Positions 2,683-58,172 of a stretch of DNA of 64,000 nt are shown here, one piece after another. Source of the DNA: Escherichia phage UPEC01. Below the pieces are notes generated by a model. It did no database searches. It was given only the letters and a program-made list of their open reading frames with translations, and was not told where the DNA came from. The stretch lies in the sequence record MW233709; one strand, written 5' to 3'. How positions within the stretch are numbered: position 1 is the first letter of the stretch; each line of letters begins with the position of its first letter. The translations under genes were made by a program, and so were the position numbers.

Positions 2683-2755
2683 TTTCCATAACGAACATGT
2701 GATGCAATGGCATCGTCATAATCTGAAATTAACCGGCGTCTTCGGACGTCCTTGA
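2675..2755 (+). CDS. stp: Stp peptide (26 aa)
   Basis: Translation [26 protein letters not shown] closely matches remembered T4 Stp ([26 protein letters not shown]). Confidence 0.65.
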
Positions 2756-2762
2756 GGAAAAT

Positions 2763-2918
2763 ATGAATAAATTTGTTCATGGTGTAGCTTTTTTCTGCTG
2801 GTCATTTTTATTTGTTGGAACATTAATAACTGGTGAAACTTCAGTATTTCTGCAGTCAACAGCTCAAGGTGTATTAGCAGTTTTATCACTATTTAAATTA
2901 TTGGATAAAAATGATTAA
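2763..2918 (+). CDS. small membrane protein (51 aa)
   Basis: ATG ORF with hydrophobic N-terminus; below track cutoff. Confidence 0.3.
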   Translation: MNKFVHGVAFFCWSFLFVGTLITGETSVFLQSTAQGVLAVLSLFKLLDKND

Positions 2919-3059: not shown

Positions 3060-4439
3060 ATGTCTGACGTTTTAAGTATGATGTCCAAACAGTTCAGTGA
3101 TTCCATGGGGACCCTTAACCCCCGCAGTCTAAAAGACATTATTGATGTGGAAGCATTGTCATATGCTATCTACACTGTGGAAGGTCGCGCCATCCCAAAC
3201 ATGATTGATGGTTTTAAACCAGTTCACAGATTTGTTATGGCGAGAGCATTAGACCTGGCGCGTGGTGATAAGAATAAATTCCATAAGGTTGCCTCCATTG
3301 CAGGTGGCGTAGCTGATTATGGTTATCACCATGGCGAAGCATCAGCGGAAGAAGCAACTTCTGGTCTGGTCGCAACATATAAAAATGAATACCCCATGTT
3401 TGATGGGCAAGGCAACTTTGGTTCCAGAATGGTGCCAGAAGCATCATCAGCTCGTTATGTATTCGCACGGGTTTCAAAGAACTTTTATAACTTGTTTAAG
3501 GATACAGAATATGCTCCGGTCCATCCTGATGAAGAACATAAGCCTCCTGCTTTTTATCTTCCTGTTATTCCTACTGTATTACTTAACGCCACTTCTGGGA
3601 TTGCTGTTGGCTTCGCTACTGATATTCTTCCTCATTCGTTCCAGGACGTCAAGGAAGCTGTTAAAGCTATCGTGGAAGGTCGTGAGCCGGTTGCTCCGAA
3701 AGTAAAATATCCAGAATTCCGCGGTAAAGTGGTTGAGCTGGAAGAGCCTGGTAAGTATGAACTTCATGGCACATACAAAATGACCTCCAGGACCCAAATG
3801 GAAATTACTGAAATCCCGGTCCAATGGAACCTGGAAAAGTATACAAGTAAAATCCTGGACCCGCTGGAAGAGAAAGGTTTTATCACCTGGAAAGATAACT
3901 GCGGCGAGCATGGTTTTGGGTTTAAGATTAAATTCCGCAAAGAATACAAGTTGGATGGTACCGAAGAAGAAAATCATGAAAAAATCATGAAAGACTTTGG
4001 TCTGATTGAGAAGCTCTCCCAGAACTTAACAGTGCTTAATCACAAAGGCAAGCTGGCTGAATACACCAACACGCTTGACCTGATTCGCGATTTCGTTGAT
4101 GTCCGTAAGACTTATGTTCAAGTGCGAATTGACAGTAAGATTAAAGAAACTGAAGCAGCATTTAAACTGGCCCGGGCAAAAGTCTTCTTTATTAAAGAAG
4201 TGATTGACGGTAAGGTTGTTATCCAGGGGAAACCTCGTAAGAAGTTGATTGAGGAACTCCAGGCGAGTGAAATATATGGCGATTATGCAGAGAAGTTAGT
4301 GGCGATGAACATCTACCATATGACCTCTGATGAAGCCAAGAAGCTTGCAGACGAAGCAAAGGCTAAGAAAGCTGAGCATGAGTACTGGAAGACAACTGAT
4401 GTTAAAACTGAATACCTTAATGATTTGGAGGCTCTATGA
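3060..4439 (+). CDS. 52: DNA topoisomerase II medium subunit gp52
   Basis: 459 aa; GyrA/ParC-like N-terminal region (AIPNMIDGFKPVHR, YHHGEAS, QGNFGS) as in T4 gp52. Confidence 0.9.
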   Translation: MSDVLSMMSKQFSDSMGTLNPRSLKDIIDVEALSYAIYTVEGRAIPNMIDGFKPVHRFVMARALDLARGDKNKFHKVASIAGGVADYGYHHGEASAEEATSGLVATYKNEYPMFDGQGNFGSRMVPEASSARYVFARVSKNFYNLFKDTEYAPVHPDEEHKPPAFYLPVIPTVLLNATSGIAVGFATDILPHSFQDVKEAVKAIVEGREPVAPKVKYPEFRGKVVELEEPGKYELHGTYKMTSRTQMEITEIPVQWNLEKYTSKILDPLEEKGFITWKDNCGEHGFGFKIKFRKEYKLDGTEEENHEKIMKDFGLIEKLSQNLTVLNHKGKLAEYTNTLDLIRDFVDVRKTYVQVRIDSKIKETEAAFKLARAKVFFIKEVIDGKVVIQGKPRKKLIEELQASEIYGDYAEKLVAMNIYHMTSDEAKKLADEAKAKKAEHEYWKTTDVKTEYLNDLEAL

Positions 4440-4534
4440 GTTTTGGAGTTGAGTTTGCATTGCTTTGTATTTTCGCGGCAATCGCAGGTGTGATTGTTGG
4501 TATGTTTATTGGTAATAAGATAGATAAAGACTAG
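4436..4534 (+). CDS. small hydrophobic peptide (32 aa)
   Basis: ATGA overlap with gene 52 stop; followed by terminator hairpin. Confidence 0.25.
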   Translation: MSFGVEFALLCIFAAIAGVIVGMFIGNKIDKD

Positions 4535-4557
4535 GACCCTTCGGGGTCCTTTTTTAT
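4533..4557 (+). terminator. intrinsic terminator
   Basis: GGACCC-TTCG-GGGTCC hairpin plus T-run. Confidence 0.7.
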
Positions 4558-7407: not shown

Positions 7408-7683
7408 ATGACTAAATTTGAAATCGTTTCTGAAATTGTTACTGTAACTTCAATTTTGATTAAAACCGACCGGGAAGATATTACGATGAAGCGTGATGTG
7501 TTTATCGCGTTTTTGAATGAGTTGGGATTGAGGAATGAGAATGGGAATGAGTTAAACAACGTATCGTTTAACAAGTTGTTTAAAAGTTTATCTGAAGATG
7601 AAATTGAACAAATCATTGAACAATTTAACGAAGGATTCGAAGATATACATCGTTATCTTATGATGTATACCTCCGGATTCTAA
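7408..7683 (+). CDS. asiA: anti-sigma70 factor AsiA
   Basis: 91 aa; VTS.ILIK..REDI, FIAFLNE.G, FNEGFE..RYL.MYT match T4 AsiA (90 aa). Confidence 0.85.
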   Translation: MTKFEIVSEIVTVTSILIKTDREDITMKRDVFIAFLNELGLRNENGNELNNVSFNKLFKSLSEDEIEQIIEQFNEGFEDIHRYLMMYTSGF

Positions 7684-8333
7684 CGTGTACGTCCGAGCGT
7701 ACGACCTGCTTGTCCACACATAGCAGAAAGCCTATCAAAACCAAGGTTAGGTTTTTGCTTATACCAGTACAGTGAGACTGTACCTGCATAAACGTTCTCT
7801 AGATTAAAGAATGGGCAGCTGAACATATATTCGAAGCTGCTTTTTTTCTTTGTTGGTAAGAATACAGATTCCGTACCGGATTCAAAATAATTACCATTAA
7901 CCCCTGCCAAATATTCCGCTGAAGTCTTATCTATTGGAAACCCACCCAAATTTTTCTCGTCGACTGATTCAGGTAATATCCCCTCGTACCCCACCATATC
8001 CACGAAGTAGTTAAGGTTAGTTGGTCTAAAAGAATATATCGCTGTAAAGTCAGCTCCGCTTGATGAGTGAACTATCTGGATTTGCTCGATAGCTGCAATT
8101 TTAAATCTGTTATCCTGGTCTTGCCTTATCATTTCTGTGTACGAGGCATATGAAGCATCCCTATACGCATCTAAAATTGCATCACCTTTATACCAGATTA
8201 CCGCCATTAAAAATAATAGAACAATAACTAGTACCCGGGAAAAGACAACTTTCCCGGTCGCATTATCTTTAAAAATTCTATCAAGAAGTCCAAAAAGTAG
8301 GTCGGGGATTGAGATTCCTACTTTTGGTTCCAT
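7680..8333 (-). CDS. t: holin T
   Basis: 217 aa; LDR.FKDNATGKV, LEQLQIVH.SS.ADF.A.YSFRP.NLNYFVD match T4 holin (218 aa); downstream of gene 38. Confidence 0.9.
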   Translation of the reverse strand: MEPKVGISIPDLLFGLLDRIFKDNATGKVVFSRVLVIVLLFLMAVIWYKGDAILDAYRDASYASYTEMIRQDQDNRFKIAAIEQIQIVHSSSGADFTAIYSFRPTNLNYFVDMVGYEGILPESVDEKNLGGFPIDKTSAEYLAGVNGNYFESGTESVFLPTKKKSSFEYMFSCPFFNLENVYAGTVSLYWYKQKPNLGFDRLSAMCGQAGRTLGRTR

Positions 8334-8351
8334 ACTTTTCTCCTTTAAAGA

Positions 8352-8359
8352 TATTTATA
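8352..8359 (-). promoter_or_regulatory. late promoter (TATAAATA) for holin t
   Basis: TATAAATA on - strand about 19 nt upstream of t start. Confidence 0.6.
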
Positions 8360-8370
8360 GCGCAAAAGTA

Positions 8371-9144
8371 TTATAGCCAGGAGCCATAGATAGTGCCTGT
8401 AGCACCCCATGTCGGTGAACTTCCGAATACTGCTCTACCAGGAGCACCACCCCCCGACCTGGATAAGTGATTGCCCCATCCGTCGCCACCAGCGCCACCT
8501 GCATCACCTCCATTACCACCGCCAAATTGACTTGTATTACCACCACCACCTGGGCCGTCATAACTAGCATTACCGCCAGGCCAATTAACGCCACCGCCGC
8601 CGAGACCAAATGGTCGACCGCCTCCCCCACCTGCGGTAGAATTTGCAGGCCAACTATTCTGTAATGATACGGCACCGCCGCCGCCACCACCAGAGGCTAT
8701 CACACCATAATTCCAAATGCGAAGTCGTCCACCAATATCATTTTGGATTACGTCGCCACCATTAGTGCCTGGGCTTCCATTTACGCTACCATTACCACCA
8801 CGGCCCCACATATGAACGCCACCATGAATATTCAAAGTAACATATTCGTTAGGGGTATCACCGTACATAAAGAACAACGGAACATCTTTAGTATATGATA
8901 CTAAGTTGCCTGTGATATTAAACACTATAGGAGCACCGCCGGCTTCAAAACAACGGTCACGGAACCATTGACCATTAAAGTTATGGTCAGCTCCAAGAGT
9001 GTGAATTACTTCAACAGAACGGCCGTTCATATTGCTCATCCAAAACGGAATGCTCATTCTTAATCGTTGGGCCGCTCCACCCATCCAATTTTGTCCTGTA
9101 TTAGCTACTGCAGACCCTCCAACCCACGGTCCTACTACTGCCAT
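8371..9144 (-). CDS. 38: long tail fibre adhesin gp38 (T2-type, glycine-rich motifs)
   Basis: Start at [10 protein letters not shown] after GGAGG RBS; conserved N-terminal region ([40 protein letters not shown]) and C-terminal poly-Gly blocks as in T2/T6-type gp38. Confidence 0.85.
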
Positions 9145-9175
9145 ATAAACCTCCAAGGGGCCGAAGCCCCTCTTA

Positions 9176-12100
9176 TTATTTCAACAATGATTTAACTAAT
9201 TTTTTAAGCTCTTCAATCTCTGATTTAAGTTCTGCAATTTCTGCAGTATGCTCGTTGATTGCAGCTGTATTTAAACCAATTACACCGTTATAGTTCAAAC
9301 GAAGTAAAGCTTCACCATCCAGGTCGCCTTCAACTAATTCTGGTAAAATAGCTTGAACTTCTTGAGCTATCAAACCAGCGTTAGGTTCCCATTTCTGATT
9401 ACCTTCTTCATCTGTTCCACGTTTCTGCATATAAGTGTAACCGTTAATTTTAGAAAGCTTCTCAGAAGCATTTTCAAATTTAACGAGGTTCTTTTTAACA
9501 CGAATATCAGAGCGGACATAAACATCACGGACATACGTTGAATAGCTGTCATTCGCCTGAACTAAATGACCATGAGAAACGATAGCTCTTCCGGTTTCTG
9601 TCCAAAAAGCACCAGTTGAATCCCAAAGTCCAGGATGAGATTGATAGCCTGCGCCCCAGCTTGCAATATGTATACTATTGGCAACCATGTTAATTCGACC
9701 ATCACCACCGTGTGATAAGCCTGTATCGTTGTCACCGATGGCGATACTCGGAGTGCCAAGTCCGTTAACAGTACCAACACCGATTGCAGGAGTTTGAATC
9801 AAAGTAGGGCTATAGAATAGTCCAGACGAATGGAATTCAAAAATACCTACAGGCCCATCGCCGCGCTCGGCATTACCTACTCGAATTATAGCTTGTCCCC
9901 AGGCTTGTGGTGTACGTCTAATACCAAGGTCAACAGAAGTAGTATATCCTTGACCAGTAATTACAGAACGGCCTTTAATAATAGGATAATAACTATCTTC
10001 GCCAACGCTACCAAAATCAAGGAAATAAGGTGCTTCTAAGCCCCATTGGTCGCCCCACGCACCAGATTTACGCGCAACCCAGTGAGCACCGTTCATATGA
10101 ATTCGGTCACGGTTTATATTGAATATACTAGTGCCCTGTGGAGATAGAATAACTTCACCGTTAGGGTTGATATTAATACCGCCTTGAGATTGGAAACTCC
10201 AGAAGGCAAGTCCGTTATCAGCACCGCCATTACCGACATACCAGTTATCAGCACCACCTTTTTTACCCTTAACATAGCCCGCTTCATCTGCTGGATAATC
10301 AATAACAACAGCATCCGAGTTGGTTTTAAGAGTTAAACGTCCGGTCATCGTGTCGCCTTCTTTTGAAACACGAGTAGCTATTGCATCGCGAATATTTGTA
10401 GTGTCTCCTGCTGAAGTGAACGTTTTCCAGATATCAGAGAAGATGTTACCATTTTTAGCAATAGTAGCTTCACCACCACCAACCTGAACATTATCGGGGA
10501 AGTTAACTGTACCATCAGCATTAAATCTTGAGGTATGGGCTTGTGTTCCATCTTCTTTAAGATGATGAATAACGAATGTACCTGAATTAATTTCAGTACC
10601 TAAAGACCAAACAGCTTTACCGTTTAAAAACTTCTGTTTGACAATCGGATAATATTTACTTACAGCGTCATCATCAATTTCTTGGAAAATAGGAGCAGCC
10701 TGGCCGTATTGAATATCATATCCACCTGCGCCTGCGCCGTGTCCACCAAATTTAATAAAACCATTTTCAGCAAAAGTTGTATGGCTCAAATCTAGGTCCG
10801 GAATAACCACCTTACCAGTATCTAAAGCCAAACTAAACGGGCGAAGTGGACCGATGTCCCCGGTTTTACCCTCACCAAAGGCTGTTGGAATAATATGAAG
10901 ACTTCCTTCTGAACGACGGAAAATAGCGGCGTAATCGTCGTTCCAAATTCTAAGAGCATTGACCGCATTACCAGCAATAGTGCCGGAGACGTTAACTTCC
11001 TGACCGACATTTATACTTTCGTTTACGCCCAAAGTTCCATTTAAATGGCTTTGAATAGAACCTGAAGTCAGACGTTGATAATATTGAATCCAGCTAGTGT
11101 CATCAGATATTTCCATTACGTTTTTACGGTCGCCATCAACATTAGCAAAGGTATTACCCCAAACGCTGATAGTCATATTATCAACTGAACTATTTCCTGT
11201 AGTATTTCCTTTGAACAACAGAGTAGATGCATTGTTGCGGCCGTCGATATTAACCGAACCGCCGATAACATTAATATCACCTGGAGTAACTAACAATCCG
11301 CCAGCGGTGTTAACGTTTGTAGTGCCTTTACCACGGAAATAGTGGTGGTAATTACCGCCTTGGTAATAACCCAAAAGAGTTTGACCATCACCGTATGCGT
11401 TATTATCATGGTAAGTAACTACAGTTGCCAGAGCATAGTTTTCAGCCGGAGGAGTAGTCAAATCAGTACCATTTACAGAATAACCCATAACCATTTTTCT
11501 AAGACTAGTAGTTTCCGCCGGACCGGAAAGGAAAGTTTTTGTACCGTTGTTTACCGTAAAAAAATATCCATCTTGATGCCATTTAAATCCGGTGTCATTA
11601 TCACCGAGGGCAATTGAAGCTGTTCCTAATTCAGAATATCCTTTGGGGCCGCCTGGGGTGCCTATAGAAATGGAATGGCCCGCTTTCAATCCACCAGACC
11701 ATGTAAACGACCATAGATAGGCCTCTAACCCGTCGCCAGCGTACCAAGTTATTCCATCATTATCTTTAACTTCATGGAAAATACCAGCTCCTACCGCATT
11801 GCGCATCGAACGAAGATGGTTAATTGCTGTTTCGCTTTCGGTTAAAGGAGTGTTGTCAGCCATTGAATAGATATCATAATCACCATCTTTCTTAGCATTG
11901 GTAATAACTTTATCAGTCATAACTGTCGGCGATGAAATAGATTTCCAAGCATTAACTATAGGAGAGGTCAAAATACCATCACCGGAGAAAGAATAGCTGT
12001 GCTCACCGCCTGCTGCGTAATCTTGTACTCGAATATTAACTACCTGGGTTGTCAAACCGGCATTATTTGGAGAAAAGATAATCCCACGTTCACGGTCATT

Positions 12101-12478
12101 GCCATCAAAGAAACGAAGGTGCGAAGTAGAAGCGCTCTTAGAAATCAGTTCGCCACCTTCAGTCATTATCTGACCTGCTGCAATAATATCACGAGTTACA
12201 CGAGCAATTCCAGTTAAATTAAAATTACCTGTCTGGGTAAATGTGCCATTGATGGTATAATCACCGGTTTGATTATAATTGCCTTTATGAATAACGTTAC
12301 CATCGATATTGCCACCCTTAGCAAAACCAAGGTCAATAATAGCTCCGGTATCATCCTTTGTGAATAACAAGCGGTCTTTCAAGTTAATTGCGAGTTCACC
12401 TTCAGCCAATACAGTTGGGGTTGGGCGGACACCAGCAATTTTACTTCTTTTAAATTGTATTTGTTTTAAAGTAGCCAT
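9176..12478 (-). CDS. 37: long tail fibre distal subunit gp37 with C-terminal intramolecular-chaperone-like domain
   Basis: 1100 aa; N-terminus [17 protein letters not shown] identical to T4 gp37; C-terminal ~110 aa (DIRVKKN...[14 protein letters not shown]...[15 protein letters not shown]...[11 protein letters not shown]) resembles S74-type chaperone domains. Confidence 0.9.
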
Positions 12479-12486
12479 AATGCCTC

Positions 12487-13134
12487 TTAATAATATCCAA
12501 AGTCTTGTACGGAGTCTTTAAGAACGATTTGGTCAAAACGAGGCACGTGAGCCGGGTCTGATGCAGGGTTCCTAGAGAAAAAATTGGGCGCTGACAAGTT
12601 TCCTGTCATTGATTGTAATGTACTATTATTTAGTTCCACCTGTTGCTGGTTAGTTACGTTTCCTAAACCAACTTGAGCTTTCGACGGAGTGTTCCCTGGA
12701 GAAAATACACGACCCGAATCATCATAAACTTGACGAGCCAGCGTATCACCCATAACCGTGAATCTTTTGGCTCCGGTTGTAGTATCAGGGTCAAAAATAA
12801 TAAATGGCGTGCCTGTTTCGGTTTCGAAACCAAACGGACCTTTTATACGGAATGAAGCCGTAAATGGTGCACCACCAGTTCTTGCTCCCAACTTAATCCC
12901 ATAACCATTTGTATCGTTAAAGGTCAGACCTTGTTCGAAATATACGTTTGCTTTATAATTACCACCAAGAGCCTTTGAAACGAAATCGTTATCTACTGCC
13001 TGCGGCTTATTATATTCGGAATAAATTTTATAAGTTTTGTAATATACATCATTACTAACTGGTGTTAAAGGGAAATTACCCTGATGCCAAAGGACTGAAC
13101 CTCCAGCGGTTGAACCTAATTTTAAATCAGCCAT
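12487..13134 (-). CDS. 36: long tail fibre hinge protein gp36
   Basis: 215 aa, between genes 35 and 37 (T4 gp36 221 aa). Confidence 0.8.
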   Translation of the reverse strand: MADLKLGSTAGGSVLWHQGNFPLTPVSNDVYYKTYKIYSEYNKPQAVDNDFVSKALGGNYKANVYFEQGLTFNDTNGYGIKLGARTGGAPFTASFRIKGPFGFETETGTPFIIFDPDTTTGAKRFTVMGDTLARQVYDDSGRVFSPGNTPSKAQVGLGNVTNQQQVELNNSTLQSMTGNLSAPNFFSRNPASDPAHVPRFDQIVLKDSVQDFGYY

Positions 13135-13170
13135 TTCAAATCCTCTTCGGTCAGCTTATTCATTATTCAA

Positions 13171-13178
13171 TATTTATA
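13171..13178 (-). promoter_or_regulatory. late promoter for gene 36
   Basis: TATAAATA on - strand between gene 35 terminator and gene 36 start. Confidence 0.6.
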
Positions 13179-13180
13179 AC

Positions 13181-13203
13181 GAAAAAAGGACCCGAAGGTC
13201 CTT
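13181..13203 (-). terminator. intrinsic terminator after gene 35
   Basis: GGACC-TTCG-GGTCC hairpin followed by T-run on - strand. Confidence 0.65.
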
Positions 13204-14332
13204 ATTGTTTTTCTCGAAGTTCGGCTGCATAAATCTTGCCTGCACGTGGAGCTTGTGCATCCGGGAATGTTACAATTGTATTGCCTGTATTTGTTGCATC
13301 GTTTGCATATGACATCCTTATGCCGTTGACACCAAATTCAGCTGGTTTGAACGCTGAGTCACCTCTGGTTATCTCACCAATAACAATATTACGTATTGAC
13401 CCTGTTCCAGTAGCTACAGTTCTTGATGTTACTACCGTAAAGCCATCAGCTCCTGCTGGAATCTCGACATATCTTTCAAAACTCGCCCATGCACCAGCTG
13501 GAACGTTTGTTGCAATATCGATGTTTGTATTTGATATAGGAGAAGTGCTAGGGCTTTTAAAGAATCGAACCGAAGTCCTTACAGTCCCGGCGGCTTTCAG
13601 AGCAGCATCAAATGACATCTGAAACTTCAGATAAAGCATATCCAAAGGCAAAAGGTTATAGCCAGTCATAGGAGTCACCAGGTCCTCTGTGGGGAACCTT
13701 TTAATTGTGGTTGGTGTTCCATCACCTGTTGATGAATACGTGCTCTCGTCTTCCGTTATGCGCACAGGATAGCCTGTTGCTCCTATATCACTAAAGGTAT
13801 CATAAACAACTTCGAGCGGTGTTGAAACATCTTCAACCAACTTCCCGTCATTATACTTAACGTGCTCCGAAACAATTACGTTCCTGCCAGTTATGTAAAA
13901 AGCCGAGTATGATGTGTCAACTTTATCAATCAACCATTTCTCGGGGAATGCTTTTGACCCCTTTAATCGCATCCAGTCAATTAATGTCTGTGAAGCGTTT
14001 AGTTTCCCAGAAGAAATAAAAGCAATCAATCTTCCGGCTGGAACAGATTCCACAAAGGTAATTAATGCCTGACTGATTGCATCATGTGTGCTAGTTAATG
14101 AATAGTTTTTCGTGTTAACAATTTTATTCGTAGTTGTATCAATTTCCAATAGAGTCAGACCATTACCAAAAGTAGTTGGTCCAATTCGTTCATCCTGAAA
14201 TTTGATATACGATTTCACCGTGGAAAGAGTACAGCTCCCTGCTATACTCATTTTAAATTTAACGGCATTATTTTCTGATATAACTGGCGTTTGGACGTAT
14301 CCTTGTCCAAACTCTGCCATAAATTTTTCCAT
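13202..14332 (-). CDS. 35: long tail fibre hinge connector gp35
   Basis: 376 aa, between genes 34 and 36 (T4 gp35 372 aa). Confidence 0.8.
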   Translation of the reverse strand: MEKFMAEFGQGYVQTPVISENNAVKFKMSIAGSCTLSTVKSYIKFQDERIGPTTFGNGLTLLEIDTTTNKIVNTKNYSLTSTHDAISQALITFVESVPAGRLIAFISSGKLNASQTLIDWMRLKGSKAFPEKWLIDKVDTSYSAFYITGRNVIVSEHVKYNDGKLVEDVSTPLEVVYDTFSDIGATGYPVRITEDESTYSSTGDGTPTTIKRFPTEDLVTPMTGYNLLPLDMLYLKFQMSFDAALKAAGTVRTSVRFFKSPSTSPISNTNIDIATNVPAGAWASFERYVEIPAGADGFTVVTSRTVATGTGSIRNIVIGEITRGDSAFKPAEFGVNGIRMSYANDATNTGNTIVTFPDAQAPRAGKIYAAELREKQ

Positions 14333-21527: not shown

Positions 21528-21532
21528 TATAA

Positions 21533-21557
21533 GGGGACCTTCGGGTCCCTTTTTTAT
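21533..21557 (+). terminator. intrinsic terminator after gene 32
   Basis: GGGACC-TTCG-GGTCCC hairpin plus TTTTTTATTTT. Confidence 0.75.
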
Positions 21558-29447: not shown

Positions 29448-29449
29448 GG

Positions 29450-29470
29450 AAAGGGCTTCGGCCCTTTTTG
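29450..29470 (+). terminator. intrinsic terminator after nrdB
   Basis: AAGGGC-TTCG-GCCCTT plus T-run. Confidence 0.65.
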
Positions 29471-38259: not shown

Positions 38260-38264
38260 GTTCA

Positions 38265-38290
38265 GGGACTCTTCGGAGTCCCTTTTTTAT
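38265..38290 (+). terminator. intrinsic terminator
   Basis: GGGACTC-TTCG-GAGTCCC plus TTTTTTATTTT. Confidence 0.75.
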
Positions 38291-43014: not shown

Positions 43015-43017
43015 CAA

Positions 43018-43038
43018 AAGGGCTTCGGCCCTTTTTTA
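43018..43038 (+). terminator. intrinsic terminator after gene 30
   Basis: AAGGGC-TTCG-GCCCTT plus T-run. Confidence 0.7.
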
Positions 43039-45487: not shown

Positions 45488-45516
45488 AAAAGGGACCTTC
45501 GGGTCCCTTTCTTTTT
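45485..45516. terminator. bidirectional intrinsic terminator
   Basis: AGGGACC-TTCG-GGTCCCT flanked by A-run and T-run, between convergent 45197 ORF and gene 54. Confidence 0.7.
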
Positions 45517-47576: not shown

Positions 47577-49322
47577 TTAGTTAATTCTCGTGGCCTGTCT
47601 CATGCCAGGGGCAGGGGTTGAACTTTGAGGAGGCATATTGTATTGCGTCCTGGAAGTCTTCTGAATATTATTGACCGTGTTAATTTGTGCCTGAGCTGGT
47701 ACATCCTTGTATTTATTTTCTTTGGCCTTCATGCCTTCGTCAACCTTCGCAGCTTGTTGTGCATCCGGAGAAGTCTTAACATCCGGCGGTTTAACTTTCG
47801 GTTCGTCTTTGAACTTCTCGAGAGACTTATCAAGTTTTTCCAACAGGGCGCGCATATTCAGGTCTTTCGGAGCCCCACCTTTTGCCATAGCTGGGTCAGC
47901 TAATTGTTTTTCAATTTTAGCTCTCATTTCCATCGCATTCTTTTTATCGGTTGCGTCTGGCTTCATTAGGTTGTCAGCAGTTTGGGTCAAACGAATAATA
48001 TCAGCCTGTGCTTTGTCACGCTTCTTGAAATAGTCCAGACGTTCTTCTTCTGGAAGGTCTCTGAAGCTTGTGTCAATACCACCCGCGCGAAGCTGGTCAG
48101 CTTGTTCCTTGGTAAGGTTACCATATTTTTCGGCTTGATTAATTAGTTCAGGTTTATCCTTATACTTCTTATTCATCTTCTCTGCAGCTTCCATTGCTTC
48201 GGCCGAACGTTTGTCATGATATTTTGCTATCTTGGTTTGGTCTTCATCATCCAGAGTTGCCCCTGTATTTTGCTGATAAGACATCAAAGCTGAGGCTTCC
48301 ACATTATCTGCTAAATCGCCCATCCCAGGGATTTTGCTTAAGATAGCTGAAATCAGTTTCGAAATACCAAGCATAAGAAGTTGAGCCATGTTCTTCGTTA
48401 AGTTGACCATTCCGCGAATAATCGCTTCGGCTAATCCTAACCAGTTCCTTTCACTAAACATCGCTTCGGCGTTCTTAGCCCAAGTCATTAGTCCTTCAAG
48501 CAACGGTCCCCATTCTTTGAACTTATCATTAAATTCGGCCCAGCCTTTTTCGAATTGCTTCATGAAATATTGGAAGTAAACTCGTATTGCATCGATACCG
48601 AATACCAACAACAATAATCCACCAATAAGCTTGGCTGCTTCGGCTGCTGCCGTAATTGTATATTTGAATAGCATCCCGGAGATTCGGTCAGCTACAGAAA
48701 TCGATGCCTTAAATCCTTTTTCGGTTATCTTCGAAAGGGTATCAAGCTTATCACCAAGTGACCAGGTATTAGTCTCTTTACCTTCTGCATCGTTTTTTGG
48801 CTGTTCTGGTTCCGGAATGAAGTCTGCATCGGGCTTTTTTTCTTCTGGCGGTATGAGCGCTGGAACGCTCGCTGTGGGCTTATTCTCTTCAGGCTCTGGT
48901 AGTGCATCCTCCACAGGTTTAAGGCTTTCAGAACCAGCCACAGGAGACGTGACGCCTATTTTACCGCTTATCATTGCACTGAGTTTGTCGAGCTTATCCG
49001 AGAGAATATCCGTGAGGTTTTTAATCCCTTGTTGAGTCTTCTCGGTGGCTTCGGCCGTTAGTTCGACCCCAGCACTGATATCCTGGAGGACCCCATTGTT
49101 GGTCTGGATATTCTCAATAATCTGATTACCCTTATCCTCAATAGCTTCCGATACAAGTTCGGTTGCAGCTTGAGTATTTGTAAGAGTTGTATTCAGATTC
49201 GATAATTCATCATTCTGTTCAGCAGAGAGGGCTTCCGCCCTCCTTTGTGGTGCTAATTCTTCGATAAGCTTTTTATTAGGTCCACCGCGTCTGAAGCTCG
49301 TTTGTTCGGAGTTTTTATTCAT
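47577..49322 (-). CDS. 29: tail length tape-measure protein gp29
   Basis: 581 aa, extended helical, Ala/Lys/Glu-rich; T4 gp29 590 aa; synteny. Confidence 0.75.
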   Translation of the reverse strand: MNKNSEQTSFRRGGPNKKLIEELAPQRRAEALSAEQNDELSNLNTTLTNTQAATELVSEAIEDKGNQIIENIQTNNGVLQDISAGVELTAEATEKTQQGIKNLTDILSDKLDKLSAMISGKIGVTSPVAGSESLKPVEDALPEPEENKPTASVPALIPPEEKKPDADFIPEPEQPKNDAEGKETNTWSLGDKLDTLSKITEKGFKASISVADRISGMLFKYTITAAAEAAKLIGGLLLLVFGIDAIRVYFQYFMKQFEKGWAEFNDKFKEWGPLLEGLMTWAKNAEAMFSERNWLGLAEAIIRGMVNLTKNMAQLLMLGISKLISAILSKIPGMGDLADNVEASALMSYQQNTGATLDDEDQTKIAKYHDKRSAEAMEAAEKMNKKYKDKPELINQAEKYGNLTKEQADQLRAGGIDTSFRDLPEEERLDYFKKRDKAQADIIRLTQTADNLMKPDATDKKNAMEMRAKIEKQLADPAMAKGGAPKDLNMRALLEKLDKSLEKFKDEPKVKPPDVKTSPDAQQAAKVDEGMKAKENKYKDVPAQAQINTVNNIQKTSRTQYNMPPQSSTPAPGMRQATRIN

Positions 49323-58142: not shown

Positions 58143-58172
58143 AAAAGGGACCTTCGGGTCCCTTTATTTTTA
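58143..58172 (+). terminator. intrinsic terminator after hoc
   Basis: GGGACC-TTCG-GGTCCC plus T-run. Confidence 0.75.

Follow-up and report, generated by a model that had tools for sequence, protein, structure and literature searches.

Which protein sets the host range of Escherichia phage UPEC01, and which receptor does that protein recognize? Here, we address these questions for a stretch of 64,000 nt from sequence record MW233709 (hereafter, “the window”), with a focus on gene 38 (8371..9144, minus strand). The genetics of the gp38 adhesin family has been studied since the 1980s. The original prediction for this locus, made from the sequence alone, was that the gene 38 product (gp38) is an adhesin with glycine-rich motifs, and that it is the likely determinant of host range. 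We conclude with high confidence that gp38 is a receptor-recognizing adhesin of the T2/T6/S16 type, and we extend that confidence to the explanation as a whole, in which OmpF is the probable receptor.

Gene 38 was delimited by its ORF and start context and by matches to Pfam and the PDB. It encodes 257 amino acids plus a stop codon, with the ATG at 9144 and the TAA at 8373-8371. A Shine-Dalgarno sequence, GGAGG (9150..9154, minus strand), can be read 5 nt upstream of the ATG, and it is left unpaired in the MFE fold. There is a longer, TTG-initiated ORF (8371-9156). We dismissed the TTG start at 9156 as an artifact, because homologues all begin with MAV... at the ATG, and because GGAGG lies 5 nt upstream of that ATG. 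Overlapping, out-of-frame ORFs within the region of Gly codons (e.g., 8355-8690) were discarded as mechanical ORF calls. An exact-sequence look-up of the 257-residue protein in a gene-position index of public assemblies returned no record. Judged by sequence, the binding domain of the protein has already been deposited, in phage UGJNEcP4.

The identity of gp38 is the same whether it is approached through Pfam, solved structures, or fold prediction. The Pfam family GP38 (PF05268, “phage tail fibre adhesin Gp38”) matches residues 45-257 with an E-value of 6.9e-82, and Gp38_N (PF21721) matches residues 1-39 with an E-value of 3.8e-20; both models pass the curated cut-off (274.9 bits versus 25, and 72 bits versus 25, respectively). 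Using phmmer, gp38 matched two PDB entries: 9V85, the receptor-binding domain of PP01 gp38 (E 2e-75), and 6F45_D, full-length gp38 of Salmonella phage S16 in complex with gp37 (E 2e-51). An AlphaFold2 (AF2) model, built from an alignment of 82 sequences, has a mean pLDDT of 88.6. When this model was compared to the PDB with Foldseek, it superimposed on 9V85 with a TM-score of 0.91 (rmsd 1.5 Å) and on 6F45_D with a TM-score of 0.85–0.88 (rmsd 2.9 Å); every other match in that search had an E-value above 2. The fold, as seen in the model rather than in an experimental structure, is a β-helix plus a polyglycine-II sandwich, as in 9V85 and 6F45_D. The polyglycine-II sandwich has been described by its authors as a near-unique fold (PMC6851490), and the Foldseek match to these two entries alone agrees with that description.

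Many GenBank records of T2-type gp38 bear a different name, i.e., “distal long tail fiber assembly catalyst” or “long tail fiber assembly chaperone.” If such names were taken at face value, gp38 would be a T4-type tail fiber assembly chaperone that is absent from the virion, and the product names of the homologues in vB_EcoM_005, JS10, RB69, IME281, and T6 are of this T4 type. We give this reading virtually no credence. A direct comparison with T4 gp38 ruled it out, with the best BLASTP match covering 14 residues with an E-value of 0.92; moreover, gp38 matches adhesin Pfam families and two adhesin crystal structures, and the RB69 and T4 records themselves state that T2-type “gp38” is an unrelated adhesin. 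Since similarity between the UPEC01 protein and T4 gp38 is undetectable, the assembly-catalyst name on T2-type gp38 is, on sequence grounds, a carried-over misannotation that reflects the function of the unrelated T4 protein. The adhesin assignment means that the host-range determinant of this phage is correctly annotated, against many records that say “assembly catalyst.”

How would such an adhesin be mounted on the phage? Gene 38 lies between gene 37, which encodes the distal long-tail-fiber subunit (1,100 aa; 9176..12478, minus strand), and the holin gene t (7680..8333, minus strand; Phage_holin_T, E 5e-66), and this 37-38-t order is the same as that in annotated relatives. Gene 37 was assigned by this gene order and by homology to S16 gp37 (6F45_A), which is matched by the last 195 residues of gp37 (906-1100; E 1.5e-46). 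A Peptidase_S74 match (residues 990-1049; E 7.5e-13) begins exactly at S990 (SDIRVKK), and marks residues 990-1100 (9179..9511, minus strand) as a C-terminal intramolecular-chaperone region. From what is known of the family, gp37 is expected to be cleaved before S990; loss of the final 111 residues by autoproteolysis, as predicted, would expose the tip on which gp38 docks. We propose that gp38 is a monomeric adhesin that would cap the tip of the trimeric gp37 long tail fiber, with docking probably following cleavage of the intramolecular chaperone.

The attachment domain of gp38 would be a small helical domain formed by residues 1-45 (9010..9144, minus strand), which includes the Gp38_N match and three tryptophans, W7, W20, and W35. 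In the structure of the S16 proteins, three conserved tryptophans are accommodated by three pockets of the gp37 trimer (PMC6851490), and W7, W20, and W35 may plug into the UPEC01 gp37 tip in the same manner. The original prediction had described this N-terminal docking region as conserved. That description is accurate for the three tryptophans, which are invariant across the homologue alignment; it does not extend to the region as a whole, which is modular, with at least two types that are ~57% identical to one another. The docking types co-vary with the gp37 tip.

The remainder of gp38 is organized around glycine. The middle and C-terminal parts of the protein are expected to form a short β-helix from which glycine-rich motifs extend. 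Glycine accounts for 26% of all positions in the protein, a share that rises to 36% within residues 109-257 and to 43% within residues 150-235. The entropy profile and the AF2 model together delimit a glycine-rich-motif/hypervariable region at residues 114-236 (8437..8805, minus strand), which is predicted from the model to be a polyglycine-II sandwich with receptor loops. Three glycine blocks separated by variable segments had been proposed, and all three are present: GGGGGGA at residues 152-158, a second at 172-185, and a third from residue 198. Among 82 homologues, the glycine motifs have a mean column entropy of 0.3–0.6 bits, rising to 1.2 bits in the last two; the lowest values (0.3–0.4 bits) are those of GRGGNG at 114-119, the poly-G run at 151-158, and the motif at 172-183. 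The five loops between the motifs are hypervariable, with entropies of 1.8–2.6 bits in the same alignment. Because motif entropy is low relative to the loops, the glycine blocks are not an accident of composition.

The five loops, which we refer to as A to E, were placed by alignment to the published loops of PP01 (PMC12892980) rather than measured on the model. Loop A (SVNGSP) spans residues 120-125 (8770..8787), loop B residues 161-170 (8635..8664), loop C (GGVNW) residues 184-188 (8581..8595), loop D (NTSQF) residues 203-207 (8524..8538), and loop E (DGWGNHLSR) residues 221-229 (8458..8484), all on the minus strand. We suggest that the glycine motifs pack into a lattice of polyglycine-II helices that would serve as a rigid, conserved scaffold, and that the five short loops are displayed on this scaffold where the protein ends distally. 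The loops could then bind the extracellular loops of an outer membrane porin, making that porin the primary receptor and setting the host range. The proposed role in host range is supported by the Pfam matches, the homology to two solved structures, the predicted fold, the conservation pattern, and published genetics on adhesins that are 92% identical in the binding domain. Swaps of gp38 from HVS2 onward have been published, and they switch the receptor (preprint 10.64898/2026.04.02.716166).

Two members of the family with solved structures share this architecture. PP01 gp38 (9V85), which binds OmpC of O157, has the same attachment domain, β-helix, and polyglycine-II sandwich; S16 gp38 (6F45), which binds Salmonella OmpC, has the same three-domain architecture; and both have the same five-loop layout as the UPEC01 protein. 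The loop sequences differ, however, with each PP01 loop segment being only 11–50% identical to its UPEC01 counterpart. Given that its loops are unrelated to those of PP01 and S16 gp38, the UPEC01 protein is predicted to recognize a different receptor.

Alignment with adhesins of known specificity points to a particular receptor. Over residues 115-235, UPEC01 gp38 is 92–93% identical to the adhesins of RB51, RB69, FL31, Bas38, Bas46, and Bas47, all six of which have been typed as OmpF-dependent. By contrast, identity to adhesins that recognize other receptors is at most 56%: 56% for T2 (FadL), 52% for PP01 (OmpC), 46–50% for four adhesins of the OmpA type (FL08, AV119, FL18, and M1), and 49% for T6 (Tsx). 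Identity to S16 over the same residues is 45%. The evidence for OmpF dependence varies between the six phages. Trojet et al. typed RB69 and RB51 as OmpF-dependent, with both phages depending also on FhuA and the LPS core (PMC3157838); Bas47 was typed as OmpF-dependent with complementation (PMC8594841); RB51, Bas38, and Bas46 were typed as OmpF-dependent by RB-TnSeq (preprint 10.64898/2026.04.02.716166); and FL31 was typed weakly, from an ~1-log loss of plating on an ompF deletion strain (PMC12032242). The six binding domains are nearly identical to one another, varying only at positions 181 and 218. The proteins resemble UPEC01 gp38 in other ways: they are 257–259 aa in length, they have the same glycine motifs, and their genes occupy the same position between genes 37 and t, preceded by the same intergenic hairpin. 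We predict that the receptor of UPEC01 gp38 is probably OmpF, because of the 92–93% identity of its binding domain to the OmpF-typed group, because loops C and E match those of the group exactly, and because Q206 (codon 8527-8529), which sits in loop D, is retained. This provides a receptor prediction that can be tested.

Nonetheless, UPEC01 gp38 differs from all six OmpF-typed adhesins at nine positions: S120, S124, P166, A167, S169, G197, G201, N203, and A218. Apart from the one at position 218, these substitutions all lie within or next to loops A, B, and D, so that this part of the loop set departs from that of every typed member of the OmpF subgroup. Specifically, loop A is TVNGNP in the OmpF-typed adhesins, loop B is LQNSWAPNAT, and loop D is YTSQF; P166-A167 in UPEC01 is a swapped AP relative to the same group. 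Other than in UPEC01, the nine substitutions occur only in untyped adhesins of Dhakavirus phages. Over residues 115-235, UPEC01 gp38 is 100% identical to that of UGJNEcP4, 98% identical to that of vB_EcoM_005 (96% overall), and 97% identical to that of JS10. The UPEC01 allele is a sub-allele common to these three Dhakavirus phages. A literature search for receptor data on Dhakavirus phages, including these three, returned nothing relevant, and a receptor screen of 255 phages has no Dhakavirus or Gaprivervirus entries.

The restriction of the nine substitutions to this sub-allele is an argument for a rival reading in which its carriers bind something other than K-12-type OmpF, i.e., OmpW, OmpC, a divergent OmpF of pathogenic E. 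coli, or two receptors. A single substitution in loop D, Q206L, was reported to switch RB51 from OmpF to OmpW (preprint 10.64898/2026.04.02.716166). Similarly, SV76 and T2 differ by two residues, and the receptor is changed (PMC3157838). One of the nine substitutions, N203, is near the switch residue Q206, and vB_EcoM_005, which shares the sub-allele, was isolated on O157:H7. It is because single-residue changes are known to retarget gp38 adhesins that we assign the remaining probability to a shifted specificity. We nevertheless consider a receptor other than K-12-type OmpF to be rather unlikely, given that the binding domain is so much closer to the OmpF group than to any other typed group, and that loops C and E and Q206 are those of OmpF binders. 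In addition, JS10, which differs from UPEC01 at four binding-domain positions, is recorded as having been grown on E. coli K-12. The stronger proposal, that the loop set of the sub-allele defines a specificity distinct from that of RB51 and RB69 (for OmpW, OmpC, or other OmpF alleles), is unlikely on our reading of the sequences. Were it true, the sub-allele would be a second natural case of fine-scale receptor retargeting on a fixed polyglycine scaffold.

RB68 was considered as an OmpW-type comparator. The OmpW specificity of RB68 has been ascribed to Q206L (preprint 10.64898/2026.04.02.716166). The GenBank entries for RB51 (FJ839693) and RB68 (KM607004), however, contain identical gp38 sequences (positions 401-1171), and both have Q206. 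Given that the deposited RB68 sequence has Q206 and the preprint describes Q206L, the laboratory stock and the record must differ. RB68 was therefore dropped from the comparison.

UPEC01 gp38 is an ordinary feature that is already well understood: there are two crystal structures, and large receptor screens cover near-identical alleles. Its practical value is modest, and no new question of biology arises from it. The nine residues that set the sub-allele apart from typed OmpF binders are useful for host-range engineering and the design of phage cocktails.

How did a Dhakavirus-type binding domain come to be in UPEC01? The backbone of the phage is closest (~96% nucleotide identity) to TH44, P479, vB_EcoM_RZ, and PSD2001, and the TH44 record is classed as Gaprivervirus. 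The nearest relatives of the gp38 binding domain, by contrast, are in the Dhakavirus phages UGJNEcP4/UGJNEcP3, vB_EcoM_005, and JS10. Relative to TH44, the flanks of gene 38 are 91–96% identical, and identity falls to ~65% at 8425-8724. At a resolution of 30 nt, each of the five loops is 50–57% identical to TH44 at the nucleotide level, with most glycine-motif blocks at ~80% and the block encoding residues 149-159 at 67%. The loop-coding half of the gene differs (8425-8805 compared), and the loop set of TH44 gp38 is entirely different. The central part of gene 37 (about 10375-10825) is also only 57–69% identical to that of TH44. The comparison with UGJNEcP4 has the opposite pattern: nucleotides 8460-8999 (residues ~49-228) are 92–100% identical, whereas identity is just 30–58% over the first 45 codons of gene 38 and across the end of gene 37 (9000-9600 compared). 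UGJNEcP4 gp38 is of the other docking type: residues 1-45 are 57% identical to those of UPEC01, with an insertion of 2 residues, and the tip of UGJNEcP4 gp37 differs as well.

These comparisons indicate that gene 38 is a two-way recombinational mosaic. Since TH44 and UGJNEcP4 exhibit opposite patterns, the docking module travels with the gp37 tip, and the loop module is exchanged separately. UPEC01 illustrates cleanly how the two modules can be exchanged independently. The mosaicism is in keeping with the modular model proposed by Trojet et al. and with published gp38 swap experiments, and the separate exchange of the loops provides independent support for the role of gp38 in host range.

The locus raises a second question, namely, what is the function of the RNA hairpin that separates genes 37 and 38? 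The original prediction placed a hairpin with a UUCG loop (9157-9170) immediately 5′ of the Shine-Dalgarno sequence. The hairpin (GGGGC-UUCG-GCCCC, 9170-9157) is present as described, within a 31-nt intergenic spacer, and two further pairs, A-U and G-U, lengthen the stem to 7 bp, i.e., a C(UUCG)G hairpin, GAGGGGC-UUCG-GCCCCUU (9155..9172, minus strand). It is positioned between the stop codon of gene 37 (9178-9176) and the GGAGG (9154-9150). The predicted folding energy of the hairpin is −12.5 kcal/mol (z −3.1), with 0 of 200 shuffled sequences being as stable; the 71-nt context of the hairpin folds no better than shuffled sequences (z −1.0).

The spacer is nearly identical in UPEC01, vB_EcoM_005, RB51, RB69, FL31, PP01, and TH44. 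A GC-rich hairpin is found at this position in all 15 phages examined, with variation in both the stem and the loop. For example, the stem is GGGCC/GGCCC in Bas47, Bas38, and UGJNEcP4, and GAGGGC/GCCCUC in T2; the loop is UUAG in JS10, and 3 nt long in T6; and Bas46 has GGGGG-AAAUG-CCCCC. In an alignment of 10 phages, 98.4% of cells are paired, with compensatory changes in three of the seven pairs, and shifting the partner by one column reduces pairing to ~70%. The retention of pairing through compensatory changes indicates that the structure of the hairpin is under selection. An Rfam scan of 7500-13500, with E-values up to 1, returned no described RNA family over the hairpin.

A hairpin with near-identical sequence, GAGGGGCUUCGGCCC, is found at the homologous position in T4, directly after the gene 37 stop codon. 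In the T4 record (NC_000866), this CUUCGG hairpin, GAGGGGCUUCGGCCCUUC (3124-3149), follows gene 37 as it does in UPEC01, yet the T4 gene 38 is unrelated to that of UPEC01; the hairpin has thus been kept while the gene downstream of it was replaced. In T4, the hairpin bridges a split Shine-Dalgarno/AUG, shortening the spacer from 22 to 5 nt, and enhances translation of gene 38 (PMC3014915). The arrangement differs in UPEC01 and in T2-type phages. The T4 Shine-Dalgarno sequence (GGAG) is 5′ of the stem, whereas that of UPEC01 and T2-type phages is 3′ of the stem. In UPEC01, GGAGG is 3′ of the stem and 5 nt from the ATG, and no GGAG precedes the stem. With its Shine-Dalgarno sequence downstream of the hairpin at normal spacing, the T4-type split mechanism is inapplicable here.

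The hairpin is part of the translation-initiation region of gp38, and the suggestion that it tunes expression of gp38 relative to gp37 is plausible. One way in which it could do so, which we put forward with low confidence, is as a structural insulator that keeps the Shine-Dalgarno sequence and AUG single-stranded. Such an insulator would uncouple initiation at gp38 from ribosomes terminating on gp37. Alternatively, the hairpin could contribute to RNA stability or processing rather than translation. There are several forms that such a function might take: (i) a barrier to 3′ exonucleases for the gene 36-37 message; (ii) a 5′ structure that protects a 38-t message after processing; (iii) a weak terminator or attenuator. 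A function of this sort is possible, although we think it somewhat improbable. CUUCGG-closed hairpins occur genome-wide in this phage, mostly with T-runs like terminators, and the persistence of the hairpin in T4 next to an unrelated gene suggests that its association may be with the end of gene 37. Moreover, a terminator scan flagged the site as terminator-like, albeit only on the plus (antisense) strand. On the sense strand, the hairpin is followed by GGAGGUUUAU, with no U-run, and the scan made no call there; we therefore rejected an intrinsic terminator in the direction of gene 38. Two further observations count against a function in stability or processing: the homologous T4 hairpin is a precedent for a translational role, and a second hairpin abuts a Shine-Dalgarno sequence ahead of another ORF, at 2735-2750.

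Genes 37 and 38 probably share a transcript. There is no T4-type late-promoter motif between the two genes; the nearest upstream copy of the motif, TATAAATA, is located before gene 36 (13171..13178, minus strand). We therefore consider it probable that genes 36, 37, and 38 are co-transcribed, and the motif at 13171-13178 is the probable start of the 36-37-38 late transcript. Another copy is found just upstream of the holin gene t (8352-8359, minus strand). In total, there are 12 copies of TATAAATA in the window, versus 4.6 expected. A terminator-like CUUCGG hairpin (13186-13203) immediately precedes the gene 36 copy.

The sequence CTTCGG itself is over-represented in the window, with 42 occurrences versus 19.8 expected; none of 100 shuffled sequences reached 42. 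In 12 cases, the motif closes a stem of 4 bp or more. Nine of these are on the plus strand (2735-2750, 4533-4550, 21531-21552, 29448-29469, 38264-38283, 43016-43035, 45489-45510, 49044-49059, and 58144-58165), and three are on the minus strand (9155-9172, 13186-13203, and 13567-13578). Most are followed by T-runs, such that they resemble intrinsic terminators and the classic C(UUCG)G hairpins of T4. Unlike most of the stem-closing copies, the hairpin upstream of gene 38 has no T-run. The second CUUCGG hairpin that abuts a Shine-Dalgarno sequence (2735-2765, plus strand) consists of GGCGUC-UUCG-GACGUC followed by CUUGAGGAAAAUAUG, which is the start of a 51-aa ORF (2763-2918). UPEC01 may make repeated use of this layout, in which a hairpin directly precedes a Shine-Dalgarno sequence.
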